From assembly GCA_024742455.1 (NCBI GenBank), contig JANSYL010000012.1:17849-81848 (forward strand): a DNA stretch of 64,000 nucleotides. Reading direction: 5' to 3'. Under the pieces are notes generated by a model. The model saw only the letters and a program-made list of their open reading frames with translations. It ran no database searches and was not told the origin of the DNA. A program made the position numbers and the translations under genes. Origin of the DNA: Paracoccaceae bacterium (GTDB lineage: Bacteria > Pseudomonadota > Alphaproteobacteria > Rhodobacterales > Rhodobacteraceae). Below are positions 7,846 to 46,540 of this stretch, piece by piece (the stretch's first letter is position 1; each line of letters begins with the position of its first letter).

Positions 7846-8461
7846 AGCTTTCCTCCAGCCAGGTTTCGAAATCACGGCCCGCGGATTCGGTTTCATACTG
7901 GTCCAGGACCCGGTCCAGCACCCCGGTTTTCGACCCCTTGAAATGAAGGAACCGGGGGCTGAGCATCCGGCGTGCCTCGGCCAGGGGTTTTCCCTCGATC
8001 ACCAGGAGGTAGAGCGCGGAGGCCAGCCCCGCCCGGTCTGCCCCGGATTTGCAATGCATCAGGAACGGTTTCTCGATGGTCCGGAACTTGTCGATCAGCG
8101 CCGTGAGCGACGCCTTGGGCGGCGCGGATTTGTCGGAAAACCCGATGGCATGCAGCGTCAGGCCCAATTCGCGGCAATAAATCTTTTCGGTGGCGTAATG
8201 GGCGCTGTCGGCCGATCCGCGCAGGGTCAGCACCGACACCACCCCCCGCCGCTTCAGCCGGTGCAGCCGTCCGGGTGTGGGATGGTTCGACCGGATCACC
8301 CCCGGCGCAATCTGCATCTGGTTCGTCCAGAACAACCGCAACACGGCATGGTCGAACCACAGCATGTAGATGCGCGCCCGCCGCCAGCTTTCCACATCCG
8401 TTGGCGCGACGTTGAAATGGGCCCGCCAGCGCCGTTCCAGCCTATCCAGAGCCTTCAGCAT
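7826..8461 (-). CDS. Protein tyrosine / dual-specificity phosphatase family protein
   Basis: Has the Cys-X5-Arg active-site loop HCKSGADRAG. Its start codon shares one nucleotide with the stop of the upstream M20 gene (TGATG). Confidence 0.75.
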   Translation of the reverse strand: MLKALDRLERRWRAHFNVAPTDVESWRRARIYMLWFDHAVLRLFWTNQMQIAPGVIRSNHPTPGRLHRLKRRGVVSVLTLRGSADSAHYATEKIYCRELGLTLHAIGFSDKSAPPKASLTALIDKFRTIEKPFLMHCKSGADRAGLASALYLLVIEGKPLAEARRMLSPRFLHFKGSKTGVLDRVLDQYETESAGRDFETWLEESYDPTRL

Positions 8462-41064: not shown

Positions 41065-42138
41065 TCAGGCCGGTCGCGGCCGACGGAAAGCCCAGCGGAA
41101 ACGGAGCACGACACGGGGCATGGCCCGTGCCGCGACGGGCAACCGGACCTGACCAAGCGATGCGACCGCCCCTGCGATGGCGTCCATGTCATCCCGCAGG
41201 CCCGAAACGGCACGCCCGGTCCTTGCGGCCAGCCACTCCACCGTTTCTGGCAGGATGTCATCGAAATCACCCTCGCGGGCGACGGGCCGTGCGGCGGGGT
41301 CGTCCGGTGGTTCGGCCATGTCCCAGCCCATCCGGTCCAGCGCCCAGTCGCGCATCCGGTCGGCAGCGGCCCGCGCAGGGGCCAGAAGCGGCGGCGCCAC
41401 GGCGAAACGGGGACCGGGCAGATCGCTTAGCGCGGTCAGGATCGGGGCGTCGGTCGCCTGCCAGGCCGGAACCCGGCGGCGGTATTGCACCAACAGGCGC
41501 ATCGCCTCGCCCGCCAGGCCCGGGTTGTTGTCGCGCGCCGACGGCAGGGACCCGAGGCCGCACAGGCCGGCGAGATCGGCAACCACCGACCCCCCGGGCA
41601 GGTGGCGCCGGTCATAGGGCCGGAAGGCCACGTTTTCCTTGCCCAGTATATCCTCCCACCCAGCGGCGGCCCGGTCGAATGTCAACATCGGCGCGCGGTG
41701 CAGGTCATCCAGCGGGATGTGGCGCGTTTTCATGCGCTGCTGAAAGCTCGAGACCATGAACGAGGCAGGCGGGCGCACGTAGGCCACGGCTTGCACGTGA
41801 TCGGCATGGGACCGGGCCAGATCGACCAGCGCCCGGATCGACGGCTTGCCAAGGCGGAACAACCTCTCCCCCGACATCACGCCGCGCGGCGCATCGCAGG
41901 CGGCCAGCGCGCGGTCGATCGCCGCGACGGCCTGTTCGGGGCTGCGCGCGCCCGGATGCATGCGCCATGCCTCGGACGGAGCGTTTGGGTGAAAGGCCAG
42001 CCGCACGACGTTCGACGCATTGGGAATGACCGGCGCGACAAAGGCCCAGTCCGGCCCGGCACGCGCGCGGGCGAGCGCGGCCTGCACCGCGGTCGAGCCG
42101 GTCTTGTTCATGCCGATATGCAGGATCAGGGCGCGCAT
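41065..42138 (-). CDS. Hypothetical protein with a sulfotransferase-like N-terminal domain
   Basis: LHIGMNKTGSTAVQ resembles a PAPS 5'-PSB loop, and YVRPPASFMVSSFQQ resembles the 3'-PB R-x-P-x5-S motif. I could not assign the C-terminal 150 aa or so. Confidence 0.5.
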   Translation of the reverse strand: MRALILHIGMNKTGSTAVQAALARARAGPDWAFVAPVIPNASNVVRLAFHPNAPSEAWRMHPGARSPEQAVAAIDRALAACDAPRGVMSGERLFRLGKPSIRALVDLARSHADHVQAVAYVRPPASFMVSSFQQRMKTRHIPLDDLHRAPMLTFDRAAAGWEDILGKENVAFRPYDRRHLPGGSVVADLAGLCGLGSLPSARDNNPGLAGEAMRLLVQYRRRVPAWQATDAPILTALSDLPGPRFAVAPPLLAPARAAADRMRDWALDRMGWDMAEPPDDPAARPVAREGDFDDILPETVEWLAARTGRAVSGLRDDMDAIAGAVASLGQVRLPVAARAMPRVVLRFRWAFRRPRPA

Positions 42139-42182
42139 GGGGCCAGCCTGTGCCTGTCCCGCTGACCGCTGCGTTAACGGCG

Positions 42183-42217
42183 CGGGGCAAAGTGCCGGGC
42201 TTTTGCCCCGGTTTTTG
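42183..42217 (+). other. Terminator-like hairpin with T-run inside a divergent promoter region
   Basis: The stem CGGGGCAAA/TTTGCCCCG has a 10-nt loop and is followed by GTTTTTG. There is no plus-strand gene upstream to terminate. Confidence 0.3.
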
Positions 42218-42232
42218 TTCCAATTTGAACAA
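42215..42232. promoter_or_regulatory. Candidate operator palindrome TTGTTC-N6-GAACAA
   Basis: Read directly from the sequence. It shares the TGTTC/GAACA half-sites with the second palindrome about 47 bp downstream. Confidence 0.4.
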
Positions 42233-42262
42233 ACCCCTTCCCAGACGGGCCCCCCTGATGTA

Positions 42263-42278
42263 TGTTCAATATTGAACA
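42263..42278. promoter_or_regulatory. Candidate operator: perfect 16-bp palindrome TGTTCAATATTGAACA
   Basis: Read directly from the sequence. It ends 12 nt before the ATG at 42291 of the winged-helix/PAPS-synthase ORF. Confidence 0.45.
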
Positions 42279-42290
42279 GAAACTTGCGCC

Positions 42291-44348
42291 ATGACCAACC
42301 TGCCCGATGACGCCCAATTGTTCCGGCTGCTGCGCCGGCTCGATGACGCCCCCGACGCCCCGCAACGGGCGGCGGCCGAGGCGCTTGGCATCAGCCTTGG
42401 CCGGTTCAACGCGCAGCTGCGCGCGGCCACGGAAGCCGGATTGGTGCAGCTGACCGACCGTGACAGCGCCGACCGGCGCAGCCGCGTGGCCTATGCGCTG
42501 ACCCCGAAAGGCGCGGCTGAAAAGGCCCGTCTGGTCGACGCTTTTCTGGCCGCTAAACTGAATGAATACAACGCCCTTCATGCCGAATTGACCGGCACGC
42601 AAAGCCCCCTTCGTCCCCCGAAGCACAGGATGATGACGATGCAATCGAACCTCACCCCGATCCCGGAGCTTTATGTCTCCTACGAAAGCGCCCAGAAGCT
42701 GAAGACAGAGGCCGCTGATCTGCCGTCATGGGACCTGACACCGCGGCAGACCTGTGACCTCGAGCTGTTGATGAACGGCGGTTTCGCGCCGCTGAAAGGG
42801 TTTCTCGGCCAGGCCGATTACGACAGCGTCGTCGATAGCATGCGGCTGGCCGACGGGACGCTCTGGCCGATGCCGATCACGCTGGATGTGAGCCAGGCCT
42901 TTGCCGACAGCATCGAACCCGGCCAGGACATCGCCCTTCGGGATGCCGAGGGCGTGATTCTGGCCATCCTGTCGGTCAGCGACAAATGGCTGCCCAACAA
43001 GAGCCACGAGGCGGAAAAGGTTTACGGTGCCGATGACATCGCGCATCCGGCGGTCAATTACCTGCACCATGTCGCGGGGCCGGTTTACCTGGGCGGCGCG
43101 ATCACGGGCATTCAGCCGCCGGTGCATTACGACTTCCGCGCCCGCCGCGACACGCCCAACGAATTGCGCGCCTATTTCCGCAAACTCGGCTGGCGCCGCA
43201 TCGTGGCCTTCCAGACGCGTAACCCGTTGCACCGCGCGCACCAGGAACTGACCTTCCGGGCCGCCAAGGAGGCACAGGCCAACCTGCTGATCCACCCGGT
43301 CGTCGGCATGACGAAACCGGGCGACGTGGACCATTTCACCCGCGTGCGCTGCTACGAGGCGGTGCTGGACAAATACCCCTCGGCCACCACGACCATGAGC
43401 CTTCTGAACCTGGCCATGCGCATGGCCGGCCCGCGCGAGGCAGTCTGGCACGGGCTGATCCGCAAGAACCACGGCTGCACCCACATGATCGTGGGCCGCG
43501 ACCACGCGGGCCCCGGCAAGAACAGCGCGGGCGAGGATTTCTACGGCCCCTATGACGCGCAGGACCTGTTCCGCCAGCACGAGGCGGATATCGGTATCGA
43601 AATGGTCGATTTCAAACACATGGTCTTCGTGCAGGAACGCGCGCAATACGAGCCGGCGGATGAGATCGCCGACAAGGACAATGTCACGATCCTCAACATC
43701 TCGGGTACGGAACTGCGCCGCCGGTTGCGCGAGGGGCTGGAGATCCCGGAATGGTTCTCTTTCCCCGAGGTGGTGCGCGAACTGCGCCGCACCTCACCGC
43801 CGCGCAGCCAGCAGGGCTTTACCGTGTTCTTCACCGGGCTGTCCGGGTCCGGCAAATCGACCATCGCCAATGCGCTGATGGTCAAGCTGATGGAGATGGG
43901 CGGGCGACCCACGACCCTGCTCGATGGTGACGTGGTCCGGAAACACCTGTCCTCCGAGCTTGGGTTTTCCAAGGAACATCGCGACATCAATATCCGCCGC
44001 ATCGGCTATGTTGCCTCCGAGATCACCAAGAACGGCGGCATCGCGATATGTGCGCCCATCGCGCCCTATACCGCGACCCGGCGGGCGGTGCGCGAGATGG
44101 TGGAGGCCTACGGCGCCTTCGTTGAGGTGCATGTCGCAACGTCGCTGGAGGAATGCGAACGCCGTGACCGCAAAGGGCTCTACAAGCTGGCGCGCGAAGG
44201 CAAGATCAAGGAATTCACAGGAATTTCAGATCCTTACGAGGCCCCGACCAATGCCGAACTGGTCGTCGATACCGAAAGCGTCGATGTCGATTACTGCGCC
44301 CAGCAGGTTCTGCTGAAGCTGGAGAGCATGGGCCTGATCGCGGCCTGA
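42291..44348 (+). CDS. Bifunctional sulfate adenylyltransferase / adenylylsulfate kinase (PAPS synthase) with an in-frame N-terminal EPS-associated MarR-type winged-helix domain
   Basis: Residues 1-105 or so (QRAAAEALGISLGRFNAQLRAATEAGLV...YALTPKGAAEKARLVDAFLAAKLNEYNALHAEL) match the small EPS-associated MarR regulator family. The rest carries ATP sulfurylase motifs (QTRNPLHRAH, VGRDHAGPG) and the APS kinase P-loop (GLSGSGKST). No stop codon separates the parts. An internal ATG at 42639 has AGGA 8 nt upstream. Confidence 0.85.
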   Translation: MTNLPDDAQLFRLLRRLDDAPDAPQRAAAEALGISLGRFNAQLRAATEAGLVQLTDRDSADRRSRVAYALTPKGAAEKARLVDAFLAAKLNEYNALHAELTGTQSPLRPPKHRMMTMQSNLTPIPELYVSYESAQKLKTEAADLPSWDLTPRQTCDLELLMNGGFAPLKGFLGQADYDSVVDSMRLADGTLWPMPITLDVSQAFADSIEPGQDIALRDAEGVILAILSVSDKWLPNKSHEAEKVYGADDIAHPAVNYLHHVAGPVYLGGAITGIQPPVHYDFRARRDTPNELRAYFRKLGWRRIVAFQTRNPLHRAHQELTFRAAKEAQANLLIHPVVGMTKPGDVDHFTRVRCYEAVLDKYPSATTTMSLLNLAMRMAGPREAVWHGLIRKNHGCTHMIVGRDHAGPGKNSAGEDFYGPYDAQDLFRQHEADIGIEMVDFKHMVFVQERAQYEPADEIADKDNVTILNISGTELRRRLREGLEIPEWFSFPEVVRELRRTSPPRSQQGFTVFFTGLSGSGKSTIANALMVKLMEMGGRPTTLLDGDVVRKHLSSELGFSKEHRDINIRRIGYVASEITKNGGIAICAPIAPYTATRRAVREMVEAYGAFVEVHVATSLEECERRDRKGLYKLAREGKIKEFTGISDPYEAPTNAELVVDTESVDVDYCAQQVLLKLESMGLIAA

Positions 44349-44899: not shown

Positions 44900-46372
44900 T
44901 CAGCCGTCCGTTGCGGTTTCGCCCGGCCCGGTCTCGGTCGTGTCCGGATCGGCGGCGGGGGCGGGGGCATCGCCCGCCCCCGAGGTCGGCAACCCGTTTT
45001 CCCAATCGCCTTCCACCACCTCGCCCGAGGCATATCGCATGATGCCCTGGCCCTGACGGCGGCCATCGACGAACTGGCCCTCGTACACATCGCCGTTGGA
45101 ATAGGTGGCCACGCCCGTCCCGTTGATCTCCCCATCGGCCCACTGGCCTTCATAAGTGAACCCGTCGGGCATCGTCAGACGCCCCTGGCCTGCGCGCTCG
45201 CCCGCCTCGAACATGCCTTCGTAGACGCTGCCGTCGGTATAGGTGGCGGTGCCCTGGCCATGCCGCAGCCCCGCCTCCCAGCCACCGTCATAGCGGTAGC
45301 CGTCGGGATGGGTCATCACGCCCTGCCCGTGCTGAAGGCCGTCGACGAACTCACCCTCATAAACCAGACCATTGGCATAACGCGCCGTTCCCGTGCCCTC
45401 GATCACGCCGGCAACCCATTCGCCCTCGTAAGAGGAGCCGTCGGGGTAGGTGATCGTGCCGCTGCCATTGGCCAGATCATCTTCGAACTGGCCCGTATAG
45501 ACGGACCCATCGGGATAGGTGACCTCACCCTGCCCGGCGATGCGGCCCGCGCGCCATTCGCCGACATAGATATACCCGTCGGCACCGGTGAAGGTGCCCT
45601 GCCCTTCACGGCGGTCATCGTTGAACTCGCCCTGGTAGATATCGCCATTGGCATAGGTGACGGTGCCGGTGCCCTGGCGGCGGCCATTGACCAGGCTGCC
45701 CTCGTAGACATCGCCATTGGGCTGCGACAGCACACCTTCGCCGTTGATCTGGCCCTCGGCCCAGGCGCCTTCGTAGACGACGCCATCGGCCATCTCCAGC
45801 CGCCCGGTTCCCGACCGCTGCCCGGCCTCGAACTGGCCGGTATATACGGCGCCGTCGGGATAGGTGATCGTGCCCTGCCCGCTTTTCAGCCCCGCCTCCC
45901 AGCCGCCTTCATAGCGGTATCCGTTGGGGCCGGTCATGACGCCCTGACCATGGTGAAGCGCGTTCTGGAATTCGCCCTCATAGGTCACGCCGTTGGAATA
46001 GACGGCCACGCCCGCGCCATGGATGCGGCCTTCCTGCCAGGTGCCGGTATAGGTCGACCCATCGGCAAAGGTGATCGTGCCTTCGCCCTCGGGCCGCCCG
46101 GCCAGAAACGTGCCCTCATAGACCGACCCGTCGGGAAAGGTGGCGCGGCCCTGGCCGCGGATCTCGCCATCGACCCATTCCCCGGTGTATTCATACCCGT
46201 TGGGCAGGCGGTAGGTGCCGGTGCCATGCTGCACCCCGCCCCGGAACTCACCCTCGTAGATGCCGCCATTGTCGTATTGCTGGATATCGACCGTGACCTC
46301 ACCCTGGGCCAGCGCGGTCTGCGCCGCGCCCAGCGCCAGCGCCAGGGCGAAACCCCGGATCACACTCCGCAT
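44900..46372 (-). CDS. Secreted MORN-repeat protein (19 tandem 23-aa repeats)
   Basis: The signal peptide MRSVIRGFALALALGAAQTALAQ is followed by 19 units of Y-x-G-x-[FW]-x2-G-x3-G-x-G-x6-G. The tail is acidic and Pro/Thr-rich. The start was moved to 46372. Confidence 0.8.
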   Translation of the reverse strand: MRSVIRGFALALALGAAQTALAQGEVTVDIQQYDNGGIYEGEFRGGVQHGTGTYRLPNGYEYTGEWVDGEIRGQGRATFPDGSVYEGTFLAGRPEGEGTITFADGSTYTGTWQEGRIHGAGVAVYSNGVTYEGEFQNALHHGQGVMTGPNGYRYEGGWEAGLKSGQGTITYPDGAVYTGQFEAGQRSGTGRLEMADGVVYEGAWAEGQINGEGVLSQPNGDVYEGSLVNGRRQGTGTVTYANGDIYQGEFNDDRREGQGTFTGADGYIYVGEWRAGRIAGQGEVTYPDGSVYTGQFEDDLANGSGTITYPDGSSYEGEWVAGVIEGTGTARYANGLVYEGEFVDGLQHGQGVMTHPDGYRYDGGWEAGLRHGQGTATYTDGSVYEGMFEAGERAGQGRLTMPDGFTYEGQWADGEINGTGVATYSNGDVYEGQFVDGRRQGQGIMRYASGEVVEGDWENGLPTSGAGDAPAPAADPDTTETGPGETATDG

Positions 46373-46540
46373 CAGCCCGCCTGTGAATTGCTGTCGCACG
46401 GGTCGCTCCCCCATTGCTCGCATTCGCCCCTCGCTGCGTAAGCTAGGGGACGGTCCGGGGCCGTGCAATGTCTTTCACCCCCGGCTTGGCGCGGGCGGGC
46501 GATCTGCTACATGTCGGCGCGAACGGCGAAGGAGCATCCC

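Follow-up and report, generated by a model that had tools for sequence, protein, structure and literature searches.

A PAPS synthase gene of Rhodobacterales with a fused MarR_EPS-type winged-helix domain, a conserved operator-like palindrome and an internal start: a predicted self-regulating trigger enzyme

Introduction

Why should an enzyme of sulfate activation carry what looks like a DNA-binding domain? This question is raised by a gene at positions 42291 to 44348 of a 64,000-nucleotide stretch of DNA from a Paracoccaceae bacterium (assembly GCA_024742455.1, contig JANSYL010000012.1), which we refer to as the window and whose numbering is used throughout. The gene, annotated in databases plainly as a bifunctional enzyme, joins a winged helix-turn-helix (wHTH) domain of the MarR_EPS type to a 3'-phosphoadenosine 5'-phosphosulfate (PAPS) synthase, which consists of an ATP sulfurylase and an adenosine 5'-phosphosulfate (APS) kinase. 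PAPS is the universal sulfate donor, and the Rhodobacterales (roseobacters) are major contributors to marine sulfur cycling and surface colonisation. Based on comparative sequence analyses we propose, with a probability of about 0.6, that the gene is a self-regulating 'trigger enzyme' that would be made both as a long regulator-enzyme and as a short enzyme; DNA binding, the occurrence of both proteins and control by a ligand are the parts of this reading that we infer. A plainly annotated enzyme would in this way become a testable circuit composed of a DNA-binding domain, a 16-bp operator and an internal translation start.

A winged-helix domain and a complete PAPS synthase in one polypeptide

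The open reading frame (ORF) and its domains are arranged as follows.

42291 to 44348, + strand: long ORF of 685 codons, starting with ATG and ending with TGA
42291 to 42605, + strand: N-terminal MarR_EPS-type wHTH with a long C-terminal helix (residues 1-105), delimited by TIGR04176, AlphaFold2, Foldseek and substitution ratios
42606 to 42638, + strand: Pro/Ser-rich, variable linker (residues 106-116), delimited by identity, substitution ratios and AlphaFold2 confidence scores (pLDDT) below 50
42660 to 43115, + strand: PUA-like N-terminal domain of ATP sulfurylase (residues 124-275; Pfam PF14306, PUA_2, E = 7e-50)
43146 to 43790, + strand: ATP sulfurylase catalytic domain (residues 286-500; Pfam PF01747, E = 3.5e-88; motifs QTRNPLH, HRAH and GRDHAG)
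43812 to 44270, + strand: APS kinase domain (residues 508-660; Pfam PF01583, E = 1e-61; P-loop GLSGSGKS, DGD and FTGISDPYE)

The enzyme part is full-length. Residues 113-684 match the NCBIfam model NF004040 (bifunctional sulfate adenylyltransferase/adenylylsulfate kinase) with 1051.6 bits against a cut-off of 669, and the match covers profile positions 2-571 of 572, that is, the full length of the family. The ATP sulfurylase part scores 461 bits with TIGR00339 (cut-off 323) and the APS kinase part 201 bits with TIGR00455 (cut-off 139). The catalytic motifs of both activities are present, QTRNPLH at residue 308, HRAH at 314, GRDHAG at 402, GLSGSGKS at 516, DGD at 545 and FTGISDPYE at 642. The gene is thus a clear member of NF004040, and production of APS and PAPS is predicted. 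Among proteins of known structure, 1I2D, 2GKS and 3CR8 are related to the enzyme part with E-values from 4e-203 to 5e-162. Residues 113-684 match the proteins of Aquifex aeolicus (2GKS), Thiobacillus denitrificans (3CR8) and Penicillium chrysogenum (1I2D/1M8P) end to end; these relatives, however, are only 546-573 aa long and have no DNA-binding domain. In the fungal one of these enzymes the kinase-like domain at the C-terminus serves for allosteric sensing of PAPS and not for catalysis, whereas the kinase motifs of the window protein are intact.

For the N-terminal domain we made use of two collections of relatives, namely the best 120 database homologs and an ortholog set consisting of the best 80 loci. 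The latter were drawn from at least 466 Rhodobacterales species genomes that hold a relative of this domain (one genome per species, scanned with an alignment of the domain), and the set amounts to 887 kb. The MarR-type winged helix that the original prediction had placed within residues 1-110 was recovered both by the TIGR04176 (MarR_EPS) hidden Markov model and by its fold. TIGR04176 matches residues 7-102 (model positions 3-98 of 105, E = 1e-24), and residues 7-53 correspond to Pfam HTH_24. With TIGR04176, residues 1-117 by themselves score 86.7 bits and the full protein 81.8 bits, just under the curated cut-off of 88; since the domain is, moreover, not free-standing and occurs in a different context, it is not assigned to the TIGR04176 equivalog. 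Indeed, the polysaccharide-locus setting of the free-standing family is absent here, the domain being fused to a 569-aa enzyme with trxB and lrp upstream. The AlphaFold2 model of residues 1-113 (pLDDT 87.4) comprises helices H1 (7-19), H2 (25-32) and H3 (36-48), a beta-hairpin wing (52-70) and a long helix (72-101). Its top Foldseek matches are MarR-family regulators, several of them solved with DNA (ZitR, CouR, FabT, MftR), and Sso10a-type wHTH/coiled-coil proteins are returned as well.

Among the 120 fused orthologs, pairwise identity is 69% in the wHTH domain, 47% in the linker and about 92% in the catalytic domains. The uncorrected ratio of non-synonymous to synonymous differences per site (pN/pS) is lowest in the catalytic domains (0.12-0.16), followed by the PUA domain (0.22) and the wHTH domain (0.28), and reaches 0.61 in the linker; the true ratios lie below these values as pS is near saturation. 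The wHTH domain is, by these ratios, under purifying selection. The original prediction had described MarR_EPS proteins as normally free-standing and about 110 aa long, which agrees with relatives of about 105-130 aa. These are 35-49% identical to the N-terminal domain and collinear with it, including the C-terminal helix, so that homology to MarR_EPS extends over wHTH and helix alike. Seven residues of the recognition helix and the wing (S35, G37, N40, Y68, L70, T71 and G74) are invariant in the approximately 120 fused proteins and in the free-standing members.

A conserved palindrome in the promoter region

Two operator-like palindromes were found upstream of the gene.

42216 to 42231, no strand: distal palindrome TGTTCCAATTTGAACA (TGTTC-N6-GAACA), exact match
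42263 to 42278, no strand: proximal palindrome TGTTCAATATTGAACA, exact match, ending 12 nt before the first ATG

These are the only two exact copies of TGTTC-N6-GAACA in the 64 kb of the window, and both are located within a 152-bp region upstream of the fusion gene. All 80 orthologous loci have at least one match to the pattern YGTTC[AT]-N4-[AT]GAACR, and all 101 matches in the 887 kb are located in the promoter of the fusion gene; in twenty shuffles of the whole set, 0-2 matches were obtained. The proximal palindrome is present at the equivalent position in 80 of the 80 loci, with the consensus YGTTCA-N4-TGAACA, and a second, upstream copy is found in 21 of 79 loci at a distance of 47-49 bp (or 32 bp) from it. 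Across these loci the half-sites are invariant and the central four bases vary, a pattern of conservation as expected for the site of a dimeric protein and not for an RNA hairpin. When 78 upstream regions are aligned, a conserved -10-like block (gtGAgATg) directly adjoins the proximal site, whose end mostly lies 15-21 nt ahead of the first ATG; the distal site, where present, falls over the -35 region.

Other identities were considered for the palindrome. The LexA box is a direct repeat (GTTC-N7-GTTC), PpsR/CrtJ sites have the form TGT-N12-ACA and FnrL sites the form TTGAT-N4-ATCAA; neither these nor the iron-rhodo box fit the palindrome in geometry or sequence. A terminator of trxB, the usual upstream gene, was likewise rejected, as the half-sites are conserved in sequence without covariation, the stem is only 6 bp long and A/T-rich, no T-run follows, and free-standing members of the family, which are without trxB, have the same site upstream.

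In most of the 80 orthologous loci the proximal palindrome is followed, ahead of the first ATG, by a further conserved block, cACTTTGAGTCGyy, whose equivalent in the window (42279-42290) is degenerate. The only Shine-Dalgarno (SD) element in this block is a weak GAG, and its conservation goes beyond what a weak SD would need.

The same palindrome precedes free-standing MarR_EPS genes

We examined nine free-standing MarR_EPS genes of alpha- and gammaproteobacteria. Contigs of genomes or metagenomes provided five of them (Psychromarinibacter, an Oceaniovalibus-like contig, Sulfitobacter geojensis, Sedimenticola thiotaurini, which is a gammaproteobacterium, and a further genome of 3.2 Mb), and the other four are plasmid-borne (Pacificitalea, Loktanella, Limimaricola and Sulfitobacter). 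In eight of the nine an exact GTTCA-N4-TGAAC precedes the gene's own start by 84-213 bp, and the ninth has two copies with one mismatch each, so that at no more than one mismatch the site is present in nine of nine. No further exact copy was found elsewhere in the nine loci. With ten specified bases, we estimate that about 0.002 exact matches would be expected in the approximately 2 kb of upstream DNA. The palindrome is thus common to genes in different contexts, and therefore the common factor is the regulator itself. This provides strong comparative evidence for the prediction that MarR_EPS-type wHTH domains recognise GTTCA-N4-TGAAC and autoregulate, and that the fused gene has kept both the domain and the site. 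In the manner of known trigger enzymes, which have a specific operator in the promoter of their own or pathway genes, the gene would accordingly have an operator in its own promoter, here a predicted one that is conserved and tied to the wHTH family by co-occurrence. The original prediction had suggested that the fusion couples PAPS supply to gene control; this idea can be made more specific, the first candidate being autoregulation via the conserved palindrome in the gene's own promoter. At the same time, the 16-bp site can be assigned to an uncharacterised family that heads polysaccharide loci in alpha- and gammaproteobacteria.

The free-standing members are located at the head of these polysaccharide loci, divergent from a gene of the RfaH/NusG family; the divergent neighbour matches TIGR01955 (RfaH) with E = 3e-28 in the Psychromarinibacter locus (L082) and is annotated as 'transcriptional activator RfaH' in L090. 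They share with the window domain the wHTH and long C-terminal helix, the invariant residues and the upstream palindrome. They differ from it in ending in an EIExL coiled-coil tail, where the window domain ends in ALHAELTG, and in having an ops-like element, where the window gene is located downstream of trxB and has none upstream.

This ops/JUMPstart-like element, GCGGTAGC, is situated between the palindrome and the regulator start in seven of the nine free-standing loci (L082 at about 7965-7975, L084, L085, L086, L087, L088 and L090), 27-38 nt before the start in L087, L088 and L090. L083 is without it, and L089 reads GCGGCAGC. The free-standing regulator therefore seems to come first in a polysaccharide operon that depends on RfaH.

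The Psychromarinibacter locus also holds a cysH gene (phosphoadenylyl-sulfate reductase; NF002537, 257 bits; L082 9509-10318), two genes downstream of the free-standing regulator and inside the polysaccharide locus. Judged from its position, this is a second, independent association of the MarR_EPS family with sulfate-activation metabolism.

In Loktanella and Limimaricola both the fused and the free-standing form are found at the genus level, and this bears on who might use the palindrome. It could be the operator of another factor, be it a free-standing paralog within MarR_EPS or an unrelated regulator of sulfur or redox functions, the fused wHTH then being an interaction, oligomerisation or allosteric module that does not bind DNA. 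The presence of free-standing genes with the same palindrome in the same genera would fit this explanation, as would the score of the fused domain slightly under the trusted TIGR04176 cut-off. However, the invariance of the recognition-helix and wing residues across fused and free-standing proteins would be unexpected if DNA binding had been lost, and an association of the site with all 80 fused loci and, in unrelated contexts, with all nine free-standing genes is the signature of family-specific autoregulation. The free-standing paralogs also appear to be sporadic (11 plasmid records). We therefore regard this explanation as unlikely.

A predicted internal translation start at the domain boundary

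The gene has two candidate start codons in the same frame.

42291 to 42293, + strand: first start codon, without an SD element upstream; predicted long isoform of 685 aa and 76.1 kDa
42627 to 42630, + strand: internal SD element AGGA, composed of the rare Arg codon AGG and the A of the next codon, with an 8-nt spacer
42639 to 42641, + strand: internal start codon ATG (M117); predicted short isoform of 569 aa and 63.4 kDa

The internal ATG at 42639 with AGGA 8 nt upstream had been pointed out in the original prediction, together with the possibility of an enzyme-only isoform. The positions proved exact, and both elements are conserved across the orthologous loci. An invariant Arg stands four codons ahead of the boundary Met. 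Its codon is AGG in 77 of 79 loci, whereas elsewhere in these ORFs AGG accounts for 1.0% of Arg codons (41/4032). The codon that follows starts with A in 78 of 79 loci (ACN, AGC, AAY or ATG), which completes AGGA. At 8 nt downstream, the codon is ATG in 65, GTG in 11 and TTG in 1 of the 79 loci, and in the other two the Met is shifted by one codon; where Val occupies the boundary position it is encoded by GTG in 11 of 11 cases, against 45% elsewhere. An SD 4-mer precedes the internal start in 68 of 70 loci and the first start in 2 of 70. The mean energy of the duplex with the anti-SD sequence is -4.3 kcal/mol for the internal start, -1.6 kcal/mol for the first start and -2.0 kcal/mol for other in-frame ATGs. 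What this comparison reveals is an in-frame start with a properly spaced SD that is conserved more strongly than coding would demand, and on this basis the internal start is under selection. Since the NF004040 profile begins at residue 113, it is probably the retained ancestral start of the enzyme, and the gene likely also yields the enzyme without the DNA-binding domain.

The AGG codon invites another explanation, in which the long protein alone is made and the codon serves as a rare-codon pause that lets the wHTH domain fold before the enzyme emerges. In favour of a pause, AGG belongs to the rarest class of Arg codons in these genes and is placed exactly at the domain boundary. Such a pause would nevertheless leave unexplained why the next codon begins with A, why a start-competent codon follows at 8 nt, and why Val at this position is always GTG; the position of the NF004040 profile, which begins at the boundary, is in addition consistent with a retained ancestral start. 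Taken together, these points make the pause explanation quite improbable. Conversely, the upstream 116 codons might be a translated leader that modulates access to the internal ribosome-binding site, with the short enzyme as the functional product. The contrast between the first start, which mostly has no SD, and the strong internal SD agrees with a leader, but the leader would have to be a complete, confidently folding wHTH domain under purifying selection (pN/pS similar to that of the PUA domain) with invariant DNA-contact positions, and in the absence of a stop codon initiation upstream necessarily gives the fused protein. This possibility is very improbable.

The fusion across Rhodobacterales

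The linker is the stretch where two genes could have been joined artificially. Its sequence, TGTQSPLRPPKHRMMTM (residues 101-117), is as first described. At all of the approximately 70 orthologous loci with sufficient 3' DNA the frame is unbroken over 689-803 codons from stop to stop, and the stop or frameshift in the linker that would have spoken against the original prediction was present in none of these species. Together with the TIGR04176 and NF004040 matches, this bears out the claim of an in-frame fusion of a MarR_EPS-type wHTH to a full PAPS synthase. The best 120 database homologs are all 682-700 aa long with a query coverage of 99-100%, and they come from Jannaschia, Roseibacterium, Dinoroseobacter, Roseovarius, Sagittula, Thalassobacter, Nioella, Palleronia and other genera of Rhodobacteraceae. 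The best 80 loci all belong to Rhodobacterales, the freshwater Fuscovulum and Aliigemmobacter among them. The fusion is thus, from these comparisons, the standard form of the PAPS synthase gene across Rhodobacterales. The original description of the arrangement as unusual holds for the architecture but not as a statement of rarity, considering the at least 466 species genomes of Rhodobacterales with a relative of the domain.

The comparative data refute an assembly or sequencing artefact, such as a lost stop codon or an indel joining two genes, because the in-frame fusion recurs in about 70 of 70 independent genomes, complete chromosomes among them, whereas the artefact has in its favour a few short 'split' database entries (P0121, P0123) and otherwise its prior possibility alone. 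We also considered whether P0121 represents a natural two-gene form, and rejected this because its contig is rich in errors. In this metagenome contig (L081, JGI Ga0612003_0410) trxB, the sulfurylase gene and the MORN gene are all broken into short ORFs, which is consistent with an indel-rich long-read assembly; this has led to a spurious 'stand-alone' wHTH protein in the protein databases. A search of representative proteins with the N-terminal domain listed no proteins of about 690 aa, probably since the fused proteins cluster with enzyme representatives at 50% identity; the free-standing relatives in this search have identities of 35-48%.

A predicted self-regulating trigger enzyme

We propose the following mechanism. 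A dimer of the long isoform (76 kDa) would place its wHTH domains on the palindrome or palindromes over the gene's own transcription start and repress transcription, and this self-repression would exert negative feedback on the level of PAPS synthase. The bulk of the enzyme would be the short isoform (63 kDa) from the internal start, leaving a small, fixed fraction with a DNA-binding head. The solved relatives 1I2D and 3CR8 are homo-oligomers, and for this reason long and short chains may co-assemble; oligomerisation of the enzyme may then supply or reinforce the pairing of two wHTH heads. More speculatively, occupancy of the enzyme by sulfate, APS or PAPS might modulate DNA binding, by analogy with biotinoyl-AMP and BirA. 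Equally speculative is a coordination of PAPS supply with the synthesis of (sulfated) polysaccharides, suggested by the operator that the gene has in common with the free-standing MarR_EPS regulators of polysaccharide loci.

Several observations weigh against this proposal. A scan of positions 41950-42700 for the sigma-70 consensus yielded no promoter, the hexamers being non-canonical, and the placing of the operator over the transcription start is a guess from conserved alignment blocks alone. In the orthologous loci, no other gene within 6 kb on either side of the fusion gene has the palindrome. As judged from its TIGR04176 score, the fused wHTH is a diverged branch, the specificity of which could have drifted, and in some genera the operator could in truth be bound by free-standing MarR_EPS paralogs, whose genes have it as well. 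The AlphaFold2 model of the full-length protein has a pLDDT of 59 and a predicted template-modelling score (pTM) of 0.32, so that domain packing is unreadable; this poor quality results from an alignment in which every row is at least 82% identical to the query. Lastly, we infer from sequence not only DNA binding but also its sign (repression rather than activation) and the production of two proteins.

A wider version of the proposal would join all these elements. The long isoform would be an APS/PAPS sensor-regulator, in which occupancy alters the geometry of the oligomer and thereby the pairing of wHTH heads on GTTCA-N4-TGAAC, and the internal start would set the ratio of long to short chains and hence the number of heads per oligomer. 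In one network with the free-standing MarR_EPS regulators at RfaH-dependent operons, this would match PAPS supply to the sulfated surface polysaccharides of marine roseobacters. We regard this joint reading as doubtful.

Relation to known regulator-enzymes

In NadR an HTH domain is followed by NMN adenylyltransferase and ribosylnicotinamide kinase, and in BirA a wHTH domain is followed by biotin protein ligase, whose adenylate intermediate drives dimerisation and DNA binding. The window protein resembles both in having an N-terminal (w)HTH on a nucleotidyl-transferring enzyme and, as a prediction, in an operator in the promoter of its own pathway. NadR also contains a P-loop kinase and has the same three-part order, an architectural parallel for which no homology is claimed. 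The window gene differs from both in concerning sulfate activation, in its MarR_EPS wHTH and in the predicted internal start for an enzyme-only isoform, and it is known here from sequence. Bacterial fusions of enzyme and repressor have been named as a class, the 'trigger enzymes' (PMC5397151, PMC8249747). This class, with BirA, NadR, PutA and RbkR, is a functional one and not a homologous family, and the window protein combines its two parts, a DNA-binding domain and an enzyme with intact motifs, in one polypeptide. RbkR, an archaeal riboflavin kinase fused to a wHTH regulator, was found by comparative genomics with a predicted palindromic operator upstream of pathway genes; its regulon comprises several operons and DNA binding was shown experimentally (PMC5397151). 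The window system is similar in joining a wHTH to a metabolic kinase and in its palindromic operator, but RbkR is archaeal and belongs to other enzyme and wHTH families, and the site of the window system is known from sequence in its own promoter only. As to the second product, in-frame internal starts that give two isoforms occur in CheA (long and short), ClpB and IF2. There, as in the window gene, a start with its own SD is located inside a longer ORF and the short product loses an N-terminal module; in the window case this module is a DNA-binding domain and the products are predicted.

A literature search, whose coverage left out most papers in subscription journals, yielded no description of the fusion, of the operator or of any characterised MarR_EPS protein, and within the same coverage no described transcriptional regulator of sulfate activation in Rhodobacterales. 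The gene would then represent a trigger enzyme for sulfate activation that extends across the clade, has so far gone unrecognised and is predicted to come in two isoforms. If this is true, sulfate activation joins the short list of pathways under enzyme-repressor fusions, and the locus offers a clean natural case of one gene giving a regulator-plus-enzyme and an enzyme-only isoform.

Genomic neighbourhood

The gene order lrp (- strand), trxB (+), fusion gene (+) is conserved in about 73 of the 80 orthologous loci. Two further genes of the window are listed here.

41065 to 42138, - strand: ORF357, 357 aa, divergent, possible sulfotransferase (sub-threshold match to Sulfotransfer_3, E = 0.037, residues 8-121)
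44900 to 46468, - strand: large MORN-repeat protein with 17 repeats (E = 2.5e-112) and a signal-peptide-like N-terminus

ORF357 separates trxB from the fusion gene, with which it has the operator-bearing intergenic region in common. It is a lineage-specific insertion, with a homolog in only 1 of the 80 orthologous loci (L011, 37% identity). The sub-threshold Sulfotransfer_3 match covers the N-terminal, PAPS-binding end, and ORF357 has a P-loop-like HIGMNKTGST and an RPPASFMVSS motif; no NCBIfam or PDB match was obtained for it. ORF357 may be a PAPS-consuming sulfotransferase that is co-regulated with the PAPS synthase.

Next to ORF357, a terminator-like hairpin was noticed at 42183-42210 (+ strand), with a 10-bp stem that includes 6 G-C pairs and is followed by GTTTTTGTT, which leads directly into the distal palindrome. 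Since ORF357 is on the - strand, the hairpin does not closely follow the end of any + strand gene; it may have been the terminator of trxB before the insertion of ORF357 moved it away.

Downstream of the fusion gene the window contains a glycine-zipper lipoprotein-like ORF, the MORN-repeat gene and nadE. The MORN gene adjoins the fusion gene only in the approximately 13 closest relatives.

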